Assembly (NCBI GenBank): GCA_021296055.1
Contig: JAGWBE010000005.1
Span: 1 to 48,615, forward strand
DNA: 48,615 nt
Reading direction: 5' to 3'
Source: Dehalococcoidia bacterium
GTDB lineage: Bacteria > Chloroflexota > Dehalococcoidia > Lucifugimonadales > Australimonadaceae
The notes beneath the pieces were generated by a model, which had not been told where the DNA came from, did no database searches, and saw only the letters and a list, made by a program, of their open reading frames with translations. This document shows, piece after piece, positions 40,214-48,615 of this stretch (position 1 is the stretch's first letter; every line of letters starts with the position of its first letter). The translations under genes and the position numbers were made by a program.

Positions 40214-41965
40214 ATGATCCATTCGTACCTCTTCATCGACCTCATCATCATCATCGTCGCCGCCTTCTTCGGCGCGGTCGCGGTGCGCCTGCTGCGCCTG
40301 CCCACCATCCTCGGCTACCTGGGCGTCGGCATCCTCGTCGGCCCCCACGGCCTCGGTCTGGTCAGAGAGGTCGAGTCGGTGGAGACGCTGGCCGAGTTCG
40401 GCGTCATCCTCCTGCTGTTCGCGGTGGGCGTGGAATTGTCGCTGTCCGACCTGCGCAAGATCGGCAGCCGCACCATCGCCGCGAGCGTGCTGCAGATTGG
40501 CGCGATGATGGCCGTCGGCTTCGGGATGGGGCGCCTCCTGGGATGGAGCGGCAGCCAAACCGTCGTCCTCGGCTTCATTCTCGCCCTCAGTTCCACGATG
40601 GTCGTGCTCAAGACGCTGAGCGACCGAGGCGAGTTTCAGATGGTGCACGGGCGCATCCTCGCCGGGTTCATGCTGATGCAAGACCTAGTGTTCGTGCCGA
40701 TGATCGCCGTGCTGCCCGCCTTGAGCGGCGAGAGCGGCCTCGATCTGGCGGGGCTTGGCGTCGGCTTGGGGCAGGCCATCGCCGTGCTTGGCCTCATCGT
40801 GGTGCTGGGCGGGCGGGTCGTACCGTGGCTGCTGGAGCGCGTGGCCAACATCGGCTCGCGCGAGACATTTGTCCTCGCCGTCGTAACCATCGCCTTCGCC
40901 GCCGCCGCCGCCACCAACGCCGTCGGCCTCTCCGCAGCCCTGGGCGCCTTCGCCGCCGGACTGGTCATCTCCGAGTCGGACTGGATAGGCCACCAGGCGC
41001 TCCAGCAGATTATGCCTCTGCGCGACATCTTCGCCGCCCTCTTCTTCGCCAGCCTGGGCGCGGCCACCGATCCTGCCTTCGTCCTCGACAACCTGCCGAC
41101 CGTCGTCTTGCTGGCCGCCGTCGCCATCGTCGTGAAGGGGTTGATCACCATAGGCGCGGTCAAGGCGGCTGGGTATCTCCCCAACACGGCGCTCCGCACC
41201 GGGTTCGGCAACACGCAGATCGGCGAGTTCGGTTTCATCCTTGCCGCCACCGCGGCGGCGGCCGGCGCAGCGGGCGCCGACTTCCTGCCCCTCGTGGCCG
41301 CCGCGACCGTCATCACCATGGCCGCCACGCCAGGCTTCTTCGCCGTGGGCGCCAAGGTCTCCCAAGTGCTGGCCGGGCGCGACCGCCGCCTCCGCCCCTA
41401 CCTGTCCGGCGCCTCCGACGCCGAGCGCGCCAGCGAGCGCGCCCCCCGCTACCACGACCACGTGCTGCTGGCGGGCTACGGGCGTGTAGGCTCCCTCGTC
41501 GCCCAAACCCTCGCCGAGCGCGTCATCCCCTTCATCGCCATTGACGAAGACCCCGAGGCGGTGCGGCGCGCCGTCGCGGCGGGCCATCACGCCCTGCTGG
41601 GCGACGCGTCCAACGACTCGGTGCTGCACGCCGCCGGCATCGCCCGCGCCCGCGTCCTCATCATCGCCGCGCCCGACCCGGTGGCGACGGTCGTGGTTGC
41701 CCAGCACGCCGCGCGCCTACGCCCCGGCATGCCCACCATCGTCCGAGTCGGCTGGGCGGAGGAGGCCGAGCGCCTGCGCGATGCGGGCGTCCACGACCTC
41801 GTATGGCCGGAGATGGAGGCGGGCCTGGAGATAGTGAGCCGCGCGCTGCGCCACTACGGGATAGACCCCGCTGAGACGCAGGCGGGGCACCGCGAGGCCC
41901 GCGCCCGCCTAGCCCCCCAAGATTCCGGCGCGGAACCGCCCCAAGATGGCAAGGAGGGCGCATAG
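40214..41965 (+). CDS. CPA2 cation:proton antiporter (Kef-type) with C-terminal TrkA-N/RCK domain
   Basis: N-terminal ~380 aa polytopic Na_H_exchanger-like region. VLLAGYGRVGSLVAQTL Rossmann motif of the RCK domain. Confidence 0.88.
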   Translation: MIHSYLFIDLIIIIVAAFFGAVAVRLLRLPTILGYLGVGILVGPHGLGLVREVESVETLAEFGVILLLFAVGVELSLSDLRKIGSRTIAASVLQIGAMMAVGFGMGRLLGWSGSQTVVLGFILALSSTMVVLKTLSDRGEFQMVHGRILAGFMLMQDLVFVPMIAVLPALSGESGLDLAGLGVGLGQAIAVLGLIVVLGGRVVPWLLERVANIGSRETFVLAVVTIAFAAAAATNAVGLSAALGAFAAGLVISESDWIGHQALQQIMPLRDIFAALFFASLGAATDPAFVLDNLPTVVLLAAVAIVVKGLITIGAVKAAGYLPNTALRTGFGNTQIGEFGFILAATAAAAGAAGADFLPLVAAATVITMAATPGFFAVGAKVSQVLAGRDRRLRPYLSGASDAERASERAPRYHDHVLLAGYGRVGSLVAQTLAERVIPFIAIDEDPEAVRRAVAAGHHALLGDASNDSVLHAAGIARARVLIIAAPDPVATVVVAQHAARLRPGMPTIVRVGWAEEAERLRDAGVHDLVWPEMEAGLEIVSRALRHYGIDPAETQAGHREARARLAPQDSGAEPPQDGKEGA

Positions 41966-41999
41966 TGAGAGGCTAGGGGAATCGGCGGGCAAACCGGAG

Positions 42000-42028
42000 T
42001 TGACAGCCCGCCAAGGGTGTTCTAAAGT
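42000..42028 (+). promoter_or_regulatory. near-consensus sigma70 promoter of the NYN gene
   Basis: TTGACA (42000-42005), 17 nt, TAAAGT (42023-42028). Confidence 0.6.
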
Positions 42029-42080
42029 AGCCCTGCTCAGCGTCTCCCGATAGTATCCCAGTTGGAGCGTGGGCTATGTT

Positions 42081-42124
42081 GAGGACTCCCGTGAGGGAGT
42101 CCTCTATCTATTATCTATGTTTTC
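42081..42124 (+). promoter_or_regulatory. 5'-leader stem-loop (10 bp, GTGA tetraloop) plus tandem TATCTAT repeat and U-rich tail
   Basis: GAGGACTCCC-GTGA-GGGAGTCCTC (42081-42104), then TATCTATTATCTATGTTTTC, then AAGGAGG SD and ATG 42139. Confidence 0.55.
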
Positions 42125-42138
42125 AAGGAGGCCGCCCG

Positions 42139-42975
42139 ATGCTGTTGCGCTCGGCGATATTCGTAGACGCTGGCTATCTGTACGCGCAAGGCGCTAAGGC
42201 GCTTACCGGTGGACCGCTGAAACGGGATCGGGTTGTTCTTGACATAGAGGCTGTGGTGGGGAGGCTGTTGGAGGCGGCAGCTGCAATGACGCAGGATGCG
42301 CCGCTCCTCCGTATTTACTGGTACGACGGCATGCTCCAAGGCCGGCTCTCGGCGGAACAGGAAGCGCTGGCCTACAAGCAAGACATGAAGCTGCGCTTGG
42401 GGGTCGTCAACAGTCAGGGGCAGCAAAAGGGCGTTGACTCGCTCATCGTGACAGATTTGATTGAACTGGCGCGCAACCAGTCTATCGCGGATGCGGTACT
42501 GCTGACGGGAGACGAAGATTTGCGGATTGCCGTACAGATCGCACAGAGCTTCGGTGTCCGGATCCATCTTATTGGCATCGAACCCAGCCGAGGTTCGCAA
42601 TCCGTAGCGCTTCTACAGGAAGCGGATACGGCAGTTGAATGGAAGAGAGAAATCGTTGCGACGTTTATGGATTCGGCACCGGGTGCTATCGAACACGGCG
42701 AGACTCCGGTTGTCCTCCCTGCGCACGACACAAGCGCAACTACCGTATTTCAAGCCATAGAGGAGGCTGCACAGGAATTCGTCGCAGGACTAGGTGTTAG
42801 TGATATTCGAGTGCTGGCCGCGCTGGGCCCGGGCGAAATCATCCCCCCGGGGTTTGACCGCCGTCTCCTTGCCATCTGCGGCAGGAGAGCGGGCCGAGAC
42901 CTTGAACTACCTGACAAGGCGCACATGAGGGAGGTATTCCGCCGCGCCGTCAGCGAGCGCATCGAGGACGCTTAG
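42139..42975 (+). CDS. NYN-domain (LabA/DUF88-like) predicted RNase with uncharacterised ~110-aa C-terminal domain
   Basis: AIFVDAGYLY..., QKGVDSLIVTDLIELARNQSIADAVLLTGDEDLRIAVQIAQSFGVRIHLIG (NYN acidic motifs). Codons frequently end in A/T (ATA, GTA, GCT, AAA, GAT, TTG), unlike the neighbours. Confidence 0.75.
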   Translation: MLLRSAIFVDAGYLYAQGAKALTGGPLKRDRVVLDIEAVVGRLLEAAAAMTQDAPLLRIYWYDGMLQGRLSAEQEALAYKQDMKLRLGVVNSQGQQKGVDSLIVTDLIELARNQSIADAVLLTGDEDLRIAVQIAQSFGVRIHLIGIEPSRGSQSVALLQEADTAVEWKREIVATFMDSAPGAIEHGETPVVLPAHDTSATTVFQAIEEAAQEFVAGLGVSDIRVLAALGPGEIIPPGFDRRLLAICGRRAGRDLELPDKAHMREVFRRAVSERIEDA

Positions 42976-44243
42976 CGCCCCGGCGCCGCGCGCACCGGGA
43001 AGCGCGACGCCAGCAGGAACACCGCCGATGTCGCTAGCATCAGGAACACCAGCGCCGTCAGCCAGCCGTCGTAGGAGCCTGTCCGCTCGAACACCAGCCC
43101 CGGCAGGTACGACCAGCCGCCGCTGCCCAGCAGCACCATCCCGTAGATCCACCCGCGGATCGTGTCGAACCACCGCCGTCCGTAGGCGCGCCCCAGGATT
43201 GCCCAGAAGACGGGCCAGACCGACTCCACCGGCGACACCAGCAGCACCGCCAGCGCGTAGCCCGGCGGCGCCTCGCTCAGGCGCAGCGCCAGCGACGCGG
43301 CGGCCATCGACAGCGCGAACGCCGCCAGCACCAGCGCCCCGTTGAAGCGGTCGGCCAACCACCCGATGAGCAGCACCATCGGAAAGGTGGATATGGCGTA
43401 CATCCCCGCGAACCACGCCGCCGTCTGCGTCGTCTCCCCCTTGGACACGAGGATGGGGATGAAGTGCAGGCCGAGGCTGCCGTAGGCGGACAGCCACAGC
43501 ACGACGCCGAGCAGCAACAACCAGTACAAGGGAGTGCGGATGGCCTGGCGCGGGGTCAGCCCCGCGGCCGCCTGGGCGGTGGCGCTCGGATCGGCGCGGC
43601 GCGGCGCGGCGTCGCCGTCGGGGTGCAGACCTCGCTCCTCCGGCGCGTTGCGCACGATGGCGCTTGCCGCGAACCCGAAGATGATGATGACCACGCCCGC
43701 GACGACCGACGTGGCGCGCCAGCCGTTCGTCCGCACCAGCGCCTCCAATGTCGGCACAATGAGCAGGCCGCCCAAGCCAATGCCCGCCGACAGGATGGAG
43801 AGCGCCAGCGCCTTGCGCCGTGAGAACCACGCGTTCGTGATGGCCGTAGGCGCTTGGAAGATCGCCCAGTTGAAGCCAAGGCTGATGAGCGCCGCGAACA
43901 CGATGAAGAGCGCGAGTAGGCTGTTCACCCAGAAGAGCGCCACATACCCCAGGCCGGCGGTGAACGCCCCGAACAGCAGCAGCTTTCTGCCGCCGTAGCG
44001 CTGCGCCAGCATCCCGGCGACAGGCGCGAACAATCCGACCTGCAACCCCGTCACCGCGAACACCAGCGAGATGGAGTCGCGCCCCACGCCCAGGTCCTCC
44101 TCCATCGGCAGCAGGAAGACGCCGCGTCCGTAGAGGCCCACGCCGCCGCCGATGACGCGCATCAGGGCCAACGCCAGCACCACCCGCCAGCCGAAGAAGG
44201 CGAGGTTCAGCGAACGGCCCGCTGGTTTGGCGGCCTCCGCCAT
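42972..44243 (-). CDS. MFS transporter (paralogue-like of 835-2127)
   Basis: 423 aa polytopic protein. FFGWRVVLALALMRVIGGGVGLYGRGVFLLPMEEDLG resembles the N-terminus of the first MFS gene. Confidence 0.8.
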   Translation of the reverse strand: MAEAAKPAGRSLNLAFFGWRVVLALALMRVIGGGVGLYGRGVFLLPMEEDLGVGRDSISLVFAVTGLQVGLFAPVAGMLAQRYGGRKLLLFGAFTAGLGYVALFWVNSLLALFIVFAALISLGFNWAIFQAPTAITNAWFSRRKALALSILSAGIGLGGLLIVPTLEALVRTNGWRATSVVAGVVIIIFGFAASAIVRNAPEERGLHPDGDAAPRRADPSATAQAAAGLTPRQAIRTPLYWLLLLGVVLWLSAYGSLGLHFIPILVSKGETTQTAAWFAGMYAISTFPMVLLIGWLADRFNGALVLAAFALSMAAASLALRLSEAPPGYALAVLLVSPVESVWPVFWAILGRAYGRRWFDTIRGWIYGMVLLGSGGWSYLPGLVFERTGSYDGWLTALVFLMLATSAVFLLASRFPVRAAPGR

Positions 44244-48060: not shown

Positions 48061-48189
48061 CTCGTCAAGGAGCGGGCGAGGGCGATGCCATCTCCGCTGT
48101 GGGCGTATACTCTGACCATGGCGCTCCGGCAATGAACTCACGCCGGAGCGTGCGCAGGGGTAGGACGGGAGGGCGCGGCGGATGACTAT

Positions 48190-48615
48190 ATGAGGCCACG
48201 AGTGGGACAGTTGATTAGGCTGGCGTATGACAAGCGAACCCTGTTGGCGCTTACTGCCGCTGTGCTGCTGTTCAGAGCCGCCATCGCATCGCCCACTTAC
48301 GATGACGGGAATAATCACTCCCACATCATTGGCTCTCCGCCATACTACAGCGACTACTTCGGCATGTATCTGCCGGTATACAAGCCGCTGACGACGATTC
48401 AGATGCCCGCGCGATTCATGGCGTACCCATGGTCATTCCTCTACGTTTCGCTGCTTCACACCGCCATTATGATTGCGGGGGCGTACCTAACGTACAGAGT
48501 CGCTCTGCGCTACGCGCCGAAGGGCGCTGCCGTCGCGGCAGGCGGGTTGACGCTCCTTTTTATGGACCTACATGAGTCGATTTCCCCCACTCGCCCCGAG
48601 CCGTGGCTGCTCGCC
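48190..48615 (+). CDS. hypothetical membrane protein, N-terminal 142 codons; continues past the right edge
   Basis: ATG 48190, frame open to the window end. MRPRVGQLIRLAYDKRTLLALTAAVLLFR... plus further hydrophobic segments (WSFLYVSLLHTAIMIAGAYLTY). Lower GC3 than the core genes. Absent from the track because there is no stop in-window. Confidence 0.5.
   Translation, partial: MRPRVGQLIRLAYDKRTLLALTAAVLLFRAAIASPTYDDGNNHSHIIGSPPYYSDYFGMYLPVYKPLTTIQMPARFMAYPWSFLYVSLLHTAIMIAGAYLTYRVALRYAPKGAAVAAGGLTLLFMDLHESISPTRPEPWLLA

Follow-up and report, generated by a model that had tools for sequence, protein, structure and literature searches.

The window analysed here, i.e., the whole stretch of 48,615 nucleotides (nt) of contig JAGWBE010000005.1, belongs to a Chloroflexota bacterium that is associated with sponges (sponge metagenomes). 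It contains a gene for an NYN-domain ribonuclease with its own promoter and a structured leader RNA, located between two transporter genes (Table 1). Judged from its sequence, this cassette is a self-contained accessory unit, composed of a near-consensus sigma-70 promoter, a leader of ~85 nt and the NYN nuclease gene, in the 40-nt spacer between the kef and MFS genes. In all loci examined, the predicted leader occurs together with this NYN subfamily and with no other gene. A preliminary description of the window, made without database searches, had placed the NYN gene alone between a Kef antiporter and a convergent MFS gene with overlapping stop codons; all of these features were found, with small corrections of the coordinates. 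The NYN stop codon TAG (42973-42975, + strand) and the MFS stop codon TAA (42972-42974, - strand) overlap by two bases.

Table 1 Features of the NYN cassette and of its surroundings in the window (nt, nucleotides; aa, amino acids; bp, base pairs)
Feature	Position	Strand	Details
Sigma-70-type promoter	42000..42028	+	-35 TTGACA 42000-42005, 17-nt spacer, -10 TAAAGT 42023-42028
Leader RNA motif	42033..42117	+	~85 nt; covariance-model match of 81.8 bits; P1, linker, P2, U-rich tail
P1 hairpin	42035..42074	+	11 bp, two bulges, 16-nt loop; predicted by RNAalifold and covariation
P2 hairpin	42081..42104	+	10-bp stem with 7 G-C pairs, GTGA tetraloop; terminator-like
U-rich tail after P2	42105..42124	+	TATCTATTATCTATGTTTTC; contains a non-conserved TATCTAT doublet
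Shine-Dalgarno sequence and start codon	42125..42141	+	AAGGAGG 42125-42131, ATG 42139-42141; read from the sequence
NYN-domain ribonuclease gene	42139..42975	+	278 aa; start ATG 42139-42141, stop TAG 42973-42975
NYN protein, parts			NYN aa 4-165; variable disordered linker aa ~170-200; four-helix domain aa ~200-278 (nt ~42736-42972)
Inserted cassette relative to empty sites	~42000..~42955	+	~0.95 kb; junction alignments with L098 and L100; left end is the -35 box
CPA2/Kef-type antiporter with TrkA-N domain	40214-41965	+	upstream neighbour of the NYN gene
MFS transporter	42972-44243	-	downstream neighbour, convergent to the NYN gene

The leader was recognized by an nhmmer search with the intergenic region of the window, which gave + strand matches upstream of NYN genes in about 35 distant loci. 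On a MAFFT alignment, RNAalifold recovers the two stems P1 and P2 de novo, with compensatory double changes at 10 of the 20 pairs. In this unfitted alignment 97.9% of the cells can pair, and the covariation of 0.295 (0.04-0.11 with the partners slid) is reached by none of 500 shuffles; the 10 compensatory pairs compare with 0-2 for slid partners. An alignment of 71 sequences, fitted to a covariance model trained on 27 leader sequences and thus biased towards the structure, has 96.4% of the cells paired, 19 of 20 pairs compensatory (11/11 in P1, 8/9 in P2 by the count of the separate stems) and a covariation of 0.56, compared with 0.05-0.12 for slid partners. The many G-U pairs indicate that the motif is an RNA read from the + strand and not a DNA palindrome. 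Only half of this leader had been seen in the preliminary description: its hairpin at 42081-42104 (P2) is real, terminator-like and conserved, while P1 (42035-42074) had been missed.

Across the loci, the aligned order comprises a -10-like TAnnAT, about 7 nt, P1, a CUAnA linker, P2 and the U-rich tail. P1 is the most conserved part of the predicted leader. In the window, its 5' strand GCTCA-G-CG-T-CTCC (42035-42047) with the bulged G42040 and T42043 is followed by the 16-nt loop CGATAGTATCCCAGTT (42048-42063) and by the 3' strand GGAG-CG-TGGGC (42064-42074). The family consensus contains a 5' strand GCYCA-G-CG-W-CUCC, a loop of 14-27 nt (CG...A-UA-N-UA...R-GUU) and a 3' strand GGAG-CG-UGRGC, in which UCCC, GUUGG and the bulged G show no or almost no variation. 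Stem pairs are exchanged between lineages (e.g., CCCA/UGGG for UCCA/UGGA, CCUA/UAGG or UUCA/UGAA); in one variant group (GGACUAUCC/GGAUAGUCG) the bulged W becomes paired, the alphaproteobacterial form corresponds to CCGUUGCG.CC/GG.CG.CAACGG, and one Dehalococcoidia copy has an extra hairpin inside the loop. P2 is a G+C-rich stem of 9-10 bp with a stable tetraloop of free sequence (UNCG, GNRA and others; UGCG, UUCG, GUGA, UUAA and AUUA occur). In the sponge metagenome run X2, the loop at 42091-42094 reads TCAC, the reverse complement of GTGA, on the same stem, which looks like a flip of the loop and shows that its sequence is unconstrained. As the P2 loops vary freely, a pseudoknot between CCCG of the P1 loop and the P2 loop was ruled out by eye. 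Long-range pairing was also considered, as 9 nt of the P1 5' strand (CGTCTCCCG, 42041-42049) are the exact reverse complement of the TGDE codons at 42506-42514; the complementarity between CGTCTCCCG and the codons of this catalytic motif is judged to be due to chance or lineage-specific, being partial in the closest RNA variants and lost in others.

For the transcript up to the tail, P1 together with P2 is the minimum free energy (MFE) fold (-34.3 kcal/mol). P1 by itself is marginally stable (-12.9 kcal/mol). In the read-through RNA of the window, a stabler alternative unpairs P1, the 3' strand of which then pairs with the tail and part of the Shine-Dalgarno (SD) sequence; the MFE folds of the read-through leaders keep P1 in 33/71 and P2 in 66/71 cases. 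An antiterminator or SD-sequestration switch was considered and is not claimed, as the alternative fold of the window is inconsistent across loci. Rfam 15 gives no match for positions 41900-42250 at E up to 10, nor at the motif in six diverse loci (E up to 1), and no RNA motif associated with NYN/LabA proteins was found in the literature (a survey of the PIN superfamily and a term search of the newest large motif-discovery paper). Given Rfam 15 and the literature searched, the leader RNA, its linkage to an NYN-plus-four-helix protein and the insertion polymorphism of the cassette appear to be undescribed.

The promoter TTGACA-17-TAAAGT matches the consensus at 10 of 12 positions and is the sole such match in 2 kb, where 0.3 would be expected. 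In 43 of the 71 loci a TTGAC pentamer lies 32-36 nt before the first position of the RNA model (33 nt for TTGACA in the window), and 17 further loci, mainly alphaproteobacterial, have a -35 element of the CTTG type. The fixed distance of the -35 element from the RNA motif suggests that the motif forms the 5' end of the transcript, predicted at about 42033-42036. The near-consensus promoter of the preliminary description is thus present, looks functional and holds its position across loci; the conservation of promoter and hairpin among the loci is far beyond chance.

P2 bears the hallmark of an intrinsic terminator, i.e., a G+C-rich hairpin followed by a U-tract. At least five T residues occur within 8 nt after P2 in 51 of 71 loci, the genomes having 58-70% GC; the window has five T in 8 nt, and P2 is the only terminator-like site in 2 kb around the gene. 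A median of 23 nt lies between the end of P2 and the start codon, too short a distance to contain a second promoter, so that the open reading frame (ORF) would have to be read through P2. The tail of the window contains the tandem repeat TATCTATTATCTAT (42105-42118), which is unique in the window and below the threshold of Tandem Repeats Finder. This TATCTAT doublet had been pointed out previously, and the sequence is indeed there, but a single copy in the related locus L001 shows it to be non-conserved, which rules it out as a functional element.

The GGAGG of the ribosome-binding site is followed after 7 nt by ATG 42139, and this start is consistent with the N-termini of 30 of 31 aligned homologs. 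The open frame as such comprises 42076-42975. An N-terminal extension or leader peptide beginning at the in-frame ATG 42076 was rejected, as ATG occurs at this position only in the window and in L001, while other loci have ATA, ACA or AGG; the 297-aa call for the nearest relative (P0001) is therefore probably over-extended. About one third of the start codons across the NYN loci are non-ATG; start-codon bias was dismissed as a sign of throttled translation, since such a share is not distinctive for genomes this rich in GC.

The N-terminal half of the protein matches the Pfam family NYN (PF01936, aa 4-165) with an E-value of 1.6e-12 and 48.6 bits, the gathering cut-off being 24.2; in NCBIfam only the NYN model TIGR00288 is matched, below threshold. 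The motifs FVDAGYLY, GVDSLIVTDL and LLTGDEDL, on which the assignment to NYN/LabA had been based, are all found, and the Pfam check bears this assignment out. More than 3000 database proteins are full-length matches, typically with ~275 aa and ~50% identity; the nearest (P0001) reaches 78%, and the next drops to 57%. In an alignment of 32 members, an invariant NYN core is followed by a variable linker of ~30 residues and a conserved C-terminal block of ~75 residues. The invariant positions include D10, D100, D106, D125 and D127, acidic residues of the metal-binding type. The AlphaFold2 model (predicted local distance difference test, pLDDT, of 89) has a PIN-like alpha/beta fold with PDB ID: 2qip as its best Foldseek neighbor in the PDB (E 2.9e-7, template modelling score of 0.67 on the target). 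From profile, alignment and model, the protein is predicted to be a PIN-like endoribonuclease. Bacterial NYN/LabA-like nucleases number thousands of sequences, with hardly any function or mode of regulation known (PMC5499597).

The C-terminal block is doubled in one member (P0116), which suggests that it is a discrete domain. Folded alone, the C-terminal 80 aa form four helices without a strand (pLDDT 95). A Pfam scan of aa 168-278 at E up to 1 finds no family, and a Foldseek search of the four-helix domain against the PDB gives no significant neighbor (best E 0.62). The proposal that the C-terminal ~110 aa are LOTUS/OST-HTH-like did not hold: a winged-helix alpha/beta fold would be expected, while the modelled domain is all-alpha, matches no OST-HTH profile and has no LOTUS domain among its Foldseek matches.

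In GTDB, with one genome per species, 565 loci encode a relative of the NYN protein, and the best 80 of 565 were taken as genome loci. These 80 come mostly from metagenome-assembled genomes (MAGs) of Dehalococcoidia and other Chloroflexota; the remainder are from Binatia, many Hyphomicrobiales and other Alphaproteobacteria, Acidobacteria, Spirochaetia and Pseudomonadales. Full-length members are also encoded on Sinorhizobium and Azospirillum megaplasmids and on one contig deposited as a phage. The covariance model finds the leader on the + strand in 80/80 genome loci, in the window and in L001, with 10-40 nt between its end and the start codon of NYN; these loci belong to Chloroflexota, Binatia, Alphaproteobacteria, Spirochaetia, Pseudomonadales and Acidobacteria. 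The leader is further found on pNGR234a, on the phage-like contig, on an Azospirillum plasmid and at a decayed copy (L099). No leader was detected upstream of those actinobacterial NYN proteins without the four-helix domain that were tested, and no intact NYN gene without a leader occurs among the loci examined. All true leaders lie before an NYN gene or what remains of one; the exception is a tandem copy in Azospirillum, which precedes a second leader. A search for the P1 pattern in metagenome and viral collections gave six matches, of which two are true (both before NYN remnants) and four due to chance, with none viral. No conserved partner gene or operon emerges: among 123 neighbors there are 157 Pfam families, none in more than four.

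On the Azospirillum thermophilum plasmid NZ_CP029357 (L088), two tandem leaders at 2756-2824 and 2918-2996 are spaced by about 160 nt; both have promoter-like boxes of their own, their P2 hairpins are identical, and the NYN gene follows only the second. The 10-kb contig MT836498 (L087, deposited as 'Bacteriophage sp.', human faecal) contains leader and NYN gene at 1257-2200, next to Rha, KilA-N, Arc-like and HIRAN-domain genes, i.e., in a phage or prophage regulatory region.

The cassette has been gained, lost and decayed among close relatives. Relatives for the comparison of the site were collected through the Kef protein. In two of them (L098 and L100, with 91% and 87% Kef identity, respectively) the site is empty: the kef and MFS stop codons are 40 nt apart, and the covariance model finds no motif. 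A third (L099, Kef 88%) is decayed, with a leader of 65 bits, a mutated -35 element, an NYN 5' remnant ending at a stop codon and ~560 nt of unrelated DNA, and a fourth (L001, Kef 86%) has an intact cassette between kef and MFS. Empty, decayed and intact sites in such close relatives indicate a real insertion, and the horizontal acquisition proposed in the preliminary description is supported by this synteny. The final ~6 NYN codons and the TAG lie in the host spacer that is also present at the empty site, which explains the overlapping stop codons of the NYN and MFS genes. Neither a target-site duplication nor terminal repeats, an integrase or a transposase were seen at the cassette.

In five copies the NYN gene is decayed while the leader is kept (L099, L096, L093, L012b and pNGR234a); in one of the decayed copies the gene is frameshifted and the leader looks intact. 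In L099 (2100-2640) the NYN body is replaced by about 560 nt of lower-GC DNA containing an uncalled minus-strand ORF of 158 aa. In L096 (400-1603, metagenome contig LXNJ01018222), an intact promoter and an intact leader stand before a stub of only about 15 NYN codons, after which a convergent HigA/HigB-like pair is located; another toxin-antitoxin module seems to have taken the place of the nuclease gene. A Dehalococcoidia MAG (L012, 2319-2790 and 3500-4010) contains a segmental duplication comprising a DUF433-like gene together with the leader and the first codons of NYN, with a VOC/glyoxalase-like ORF in place of NYN in the first copy and a hicA/hicB-like pair just upstream. On pNGR234a of Sinorhizobium fredii NGR234 (L086, 3916-4855; NC_000914, ~294.4-295.4 kb), an in-frame stop codon gives RIY*YDG for the invariant RIYWYDG; in RefSeq, only a truncated ORF farther downstream is annotated. 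The leader of this copy is intact and has a RES/Xre toxin-antitoxin pair as its neighbor.

Between the window and L001, the segment 42037-42105 has one difference in ~70 nt, while the sequence just upstream is diverged. The NYN proteins share 78% aa identity, with a synonymous divergence (dS) of 0.87 and a ratio of non-synonymous to synonymous divergence (dN/dS) of 0.15 (0.07 in the NYN domain, 0.24 in the C-terminal domain); the corresponding values are 86%, 0.43 and 0.20 for Kef and 96%, 0.29 and 0.07 for the MFS protein. The proportion of synonymous differences (pS) of 0.51 in the NYN gene stands against the near-unchanged core of the leader. By these comparisons, the NYN protein and the leader RNA are both under purifying selection, the RNA more strongly. 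The NYN dS (window 42139-42972 against L001 1343-2176) is two to three times that of Kef and MFS; an older divergence of the alleles, an allelic replacement or a weaker codon bias of the cassette are possible reasons.

The composition of the cassette differs from that of its surroundings: the GC content is 0.55-0.60 across 41900-42950 and about 0.70 in the flanks. The GC content at third codon positions (GC3) of the NYN gene is 0.64, compared with 0.82-0.94 for nearly all other high-GC3 ORFs of the 48.6-kb window, the exceptions being two small ORFs of doubtful coding status (0.76 and 0.74); with these two set aside, the gene lies about 5 standard deviations under the mean. Third-position GC lower than that of the neighbors, reported earlier as a sign of foreign composition, is thus evident (0.64 against 0.74-0.94). 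The low GC is, however, a family-wide trait: in 77 of 81 loci the NYN gene has a lower GC content than its flanks (mean difference of 9 points), and the difference persists in the relative with a 78% identical NYN protein. It characterizes the cassette everywhere and does not mark one recent transfer. Elsewhere in the window, the GC content falls to about 0.57-0.58 at its end (48150-48599), where no clear high-GC3 ORF is present and which may be another foreign or non-coding stretch, and the only Rfam match at gathering level is a selenocysteine tRNA (RF01852, 10815-10908, + strand, 71.8 bits).

The reading favored here, tentatively and with somewhat less than even confidence, is feedback in cis: the NYN protein would bind or cut P1 of its own leader and thereby tune read-through, stability or translation of the message. 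From the strong promoter, P1 would be made first and then P2; P2 and the U-rich tail would act as an intrinsic terminator, so that most transcripts would stop as an RNA of ~75-85 nt. The NYN ORF, which begins about 20-40 nt past P2 without a promoter of its own, would be carried by read-through transcripts only. A terminator-like P2 between the promoter and the sole gene suggests as much, i.e., mostly short transcripts and an NYN synthesis that depends on read-through. P1 would serve as the cognate recognition hairpin of the protein, as suggested by the invariant bulged G, the CUCC/GGAG core and the UA-N-UA...GUU loop. A leader that stays with a single protein family whatever the host, and whose bulges and loop nucleotides are invariant, is most simply explained as an RNA recognized by that protein. 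Binding would probably be through the basic four-helix domain, by which the P1 loop might be offered to the active site. By binding or cutting its leader, the protein would then feed back on synthesis, so that a potentially harmful RNase could be kept low and buffered. Feedback in cis is ranked first owing to its precedent among RNase genes and to the fewest assumptions. With a terminator-like and conserved hairpin, the attenuator and the target for autoregulation envisaged in the preliminary description remain the leading ideas.

Several observations weigh against feedback in cis. The U-tail of the window is interrupted (five T in 8 nt), so that termination may be weak here, and all sequencing runs with the sequence of the window or of L013 are DNA metagenomes, so that the 5' end of the transcript and its termination at P2 are predictions from sequence. 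No antiterminator or SD-sequestering helix was found to be conserved over the 71 loci, the alternative folds differing between loci and no antiterminator with covariation being seen, and the four-helix domain proposed for RNA binding has no characterized relative in the PDB search. The free-standing Azospirillum leader with its own promoter and the five decayed NYN genes with intact leaders fit an RNA acting in trans at least as well as one acting purely in cis.

Action in trans is the essence of an RNA-protein pair of the toxin-antitoxin or defense type, in which NYN would be the toxin and the terminated P1-P2 RNA a pseudo-substrate antidote; the terminator would set the ratio of RNA to protein, as in type III ToxIN. 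We regard such a pair as a possibility, albeit a rather unlikely one. Its locus order would be that of the type III systems ToxIN, CptIN and TenpIN, which consist of a promoter, a non-coding RNA, a Rho-independent terminator and an endoribonuclease (PMC3401426, PMC8860590). The absence of a conserved protein partner agrees with it, as do the patchy distribution across phyla, the AT-richer NYN gene (77/81 loci), the variable presence in close strains and the copies on megaplasmids and a phage-like contig. The extra Azospirillum copy points the same way, as does the direction of decay: the nuclease gene is lost with the leader kept in five cases, and the reverse never occurs. Some copies also adjoin hicAB, higBA or RES-Xre modules. 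However, the RNA is a single hairpin unit with one motif per locus instead of a tandem repeat array, an RNA copy on its own is rare, being found in about 1 in 90 loci, and NYN is unrelated to ToxN, CptN and TenpN. The neighbors are mostly housekeeping genes and not defense islands, and a scan with the defense-system library PADLOC gave a single weak match (HEC-09, E 0.0023). Toxicity is not known for any NYN/LabA protein. That the locus represents a new two-part module is considered unlikely. In such a module, which would amount to a type III-like toxin-antitoxin or anti-phage system with an unrelated toxin fold, a PIN-like (NYN) toxin or defense nuclease would be checked by a single non-repetitive RNA that shares its promoter and is set free by the terminator, the whole having spread as a ~1-kb cassette over at least six phyla, on plasmids and on a phage-like contig.

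Two further explanations dispense with an RNA that binds the NYN protein. In the case of a riboswitch, the P1 loop and bulges would constitute an aptamer for a small molecule or ion, with P2 as the terminator of the expression platform. The order at the 5' end of the transcript (a structured domain, an intrinsic terminator and the ORF) is the classic one, the structured domain is backed by covariation and has conserved unpaired nucleotides in loop and bulges, and the marginal P1 gives way to other pairings in roughly half of the read-through leaders. A riboswitch class, however, is usually found before several gene families that share a pathway, whereas this leader is tied to a single protein subfamily; it is one bulged hairpin without a junction or a supported pseudoknot, no antiterminator over P2 was seen to be conserved, the free P2 loop rules out a loop-loop contact, and a metabolic context pointing to a ligand is lacking. 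A riboswitch is therefore considered very unlikely. Least probable is a passive leader, in which P1 and P2 would do no more than shield the mRNA at its 5' end and insulate the cassette from upstream transcription, with neither a specific partner nor feedback. Terminal stem-loops at the 5' end do stabilize bacterial mRNAs, and a mobile cassette would gain from a promoter of its own and a terminator-like insulator. Structure as such would then suffice, yet across phyla there is no variation in the bulged G, UCCC, GUUGG and the UA-N-UA loop, the conservation of the leader far exceeds that of the synonymous sites of NYN, and a terminator between a promoter and its sole gene is costly unless useful.

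For one subfamily of the scarcely understood bacterial NYN nucleases, the covarying RNA of ~85 nt that is always alongside provides a testable handle. If P1 is indeed the recognition element, a bacterial NYN nuclease would for the first time have a candidate substrate or ligand, and the orphan four-helix domain would be given a role. The leader would constitute a new class of bacterial cis-regulatory or partner RNA, found largely in uncultured and under-sampled Chloroflexota and Binatia. Presence, absence and decay at one chromosomal site make the locus a clean case of a minimal mobile cassette without a recognizable mobility gene.

Of the parts, the NYN family is known, though uncharacterized; in kind, the leader belongs with the 5' leaders of RNase genes, or perhaps with the RNAs of RNA-protein pairs. 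With LabA-like/NYN proteins (PF01936, COG1432; e.g., Vibrio VPA0982, PDB ID: 2qip, and Synechococcus LabA) the protein shares the fold and the acidic residues over its N-terminal 165 aa, while the four-helix C-terminal domain and the dedicated leader RNA set the subfamily apart. Bacterial DUF88-OST-HTH fusions and MARF1 also combine an NYN nuclease with a small C-terminal module, presumed to confer RNA specificity (PMC2848206, PMC6294520). The plan of the fusion is the same as in these NYN proteins with OST-HTH/LOTUS modules, but the module here is an all-alpha four-helix domain. As regards the proposed mode of action, Regnase-1 (ZC3H12A) is a PIN-like RNase specific for stem-loops, including one in its own mRNA, and thereby limits its own expression. 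It differs in being eukaryotic, in its target within the 3' untranslated region (UTR) and in its CCCH zinc finger; homology is restricted to the PIN-like fold.

Type III systems resemble the cassette in gene order, in being stand-alone mobile modules without a protein partner and in the terminator-like element (here P2) between RNA and nuclease gene. Their antitoxins are tandem repeat arrays processed by the toxin, whereas the cassette has one bulged hairpin and an NYN/PIN-like nuclease of another family. Terminator-type riboswitches and attenuators are alike in having a covarying 5' domain followed by a G+C-rich hairpin and a U-tail before the ORF; here, however, no mutually exclusive antiterminator was found, only one gene family lies downstream, and no candidate ligand is apparent. 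A parallel to the favored feedback in cis is offered by the leaders of rne (the RNase E 5' UTR, RF00040), rnc and pnp, which are autoregulatory structured 5' UTRs of ribonuclease genes. As in these, a conserved structured 5' UTR precedes a ribonuclease gene, and its simplest reading is feedback of the enzyme on its own message. The leader described here has no sequence or structure homology to them, includes a terminator-like hairpin and is mobile together with its gene, and its feedback is only proposed. The cassette would thus resemble the autoregulation of RNase E, RNase III and PNPase in a portable form, one that might operate without the need of a host factor.

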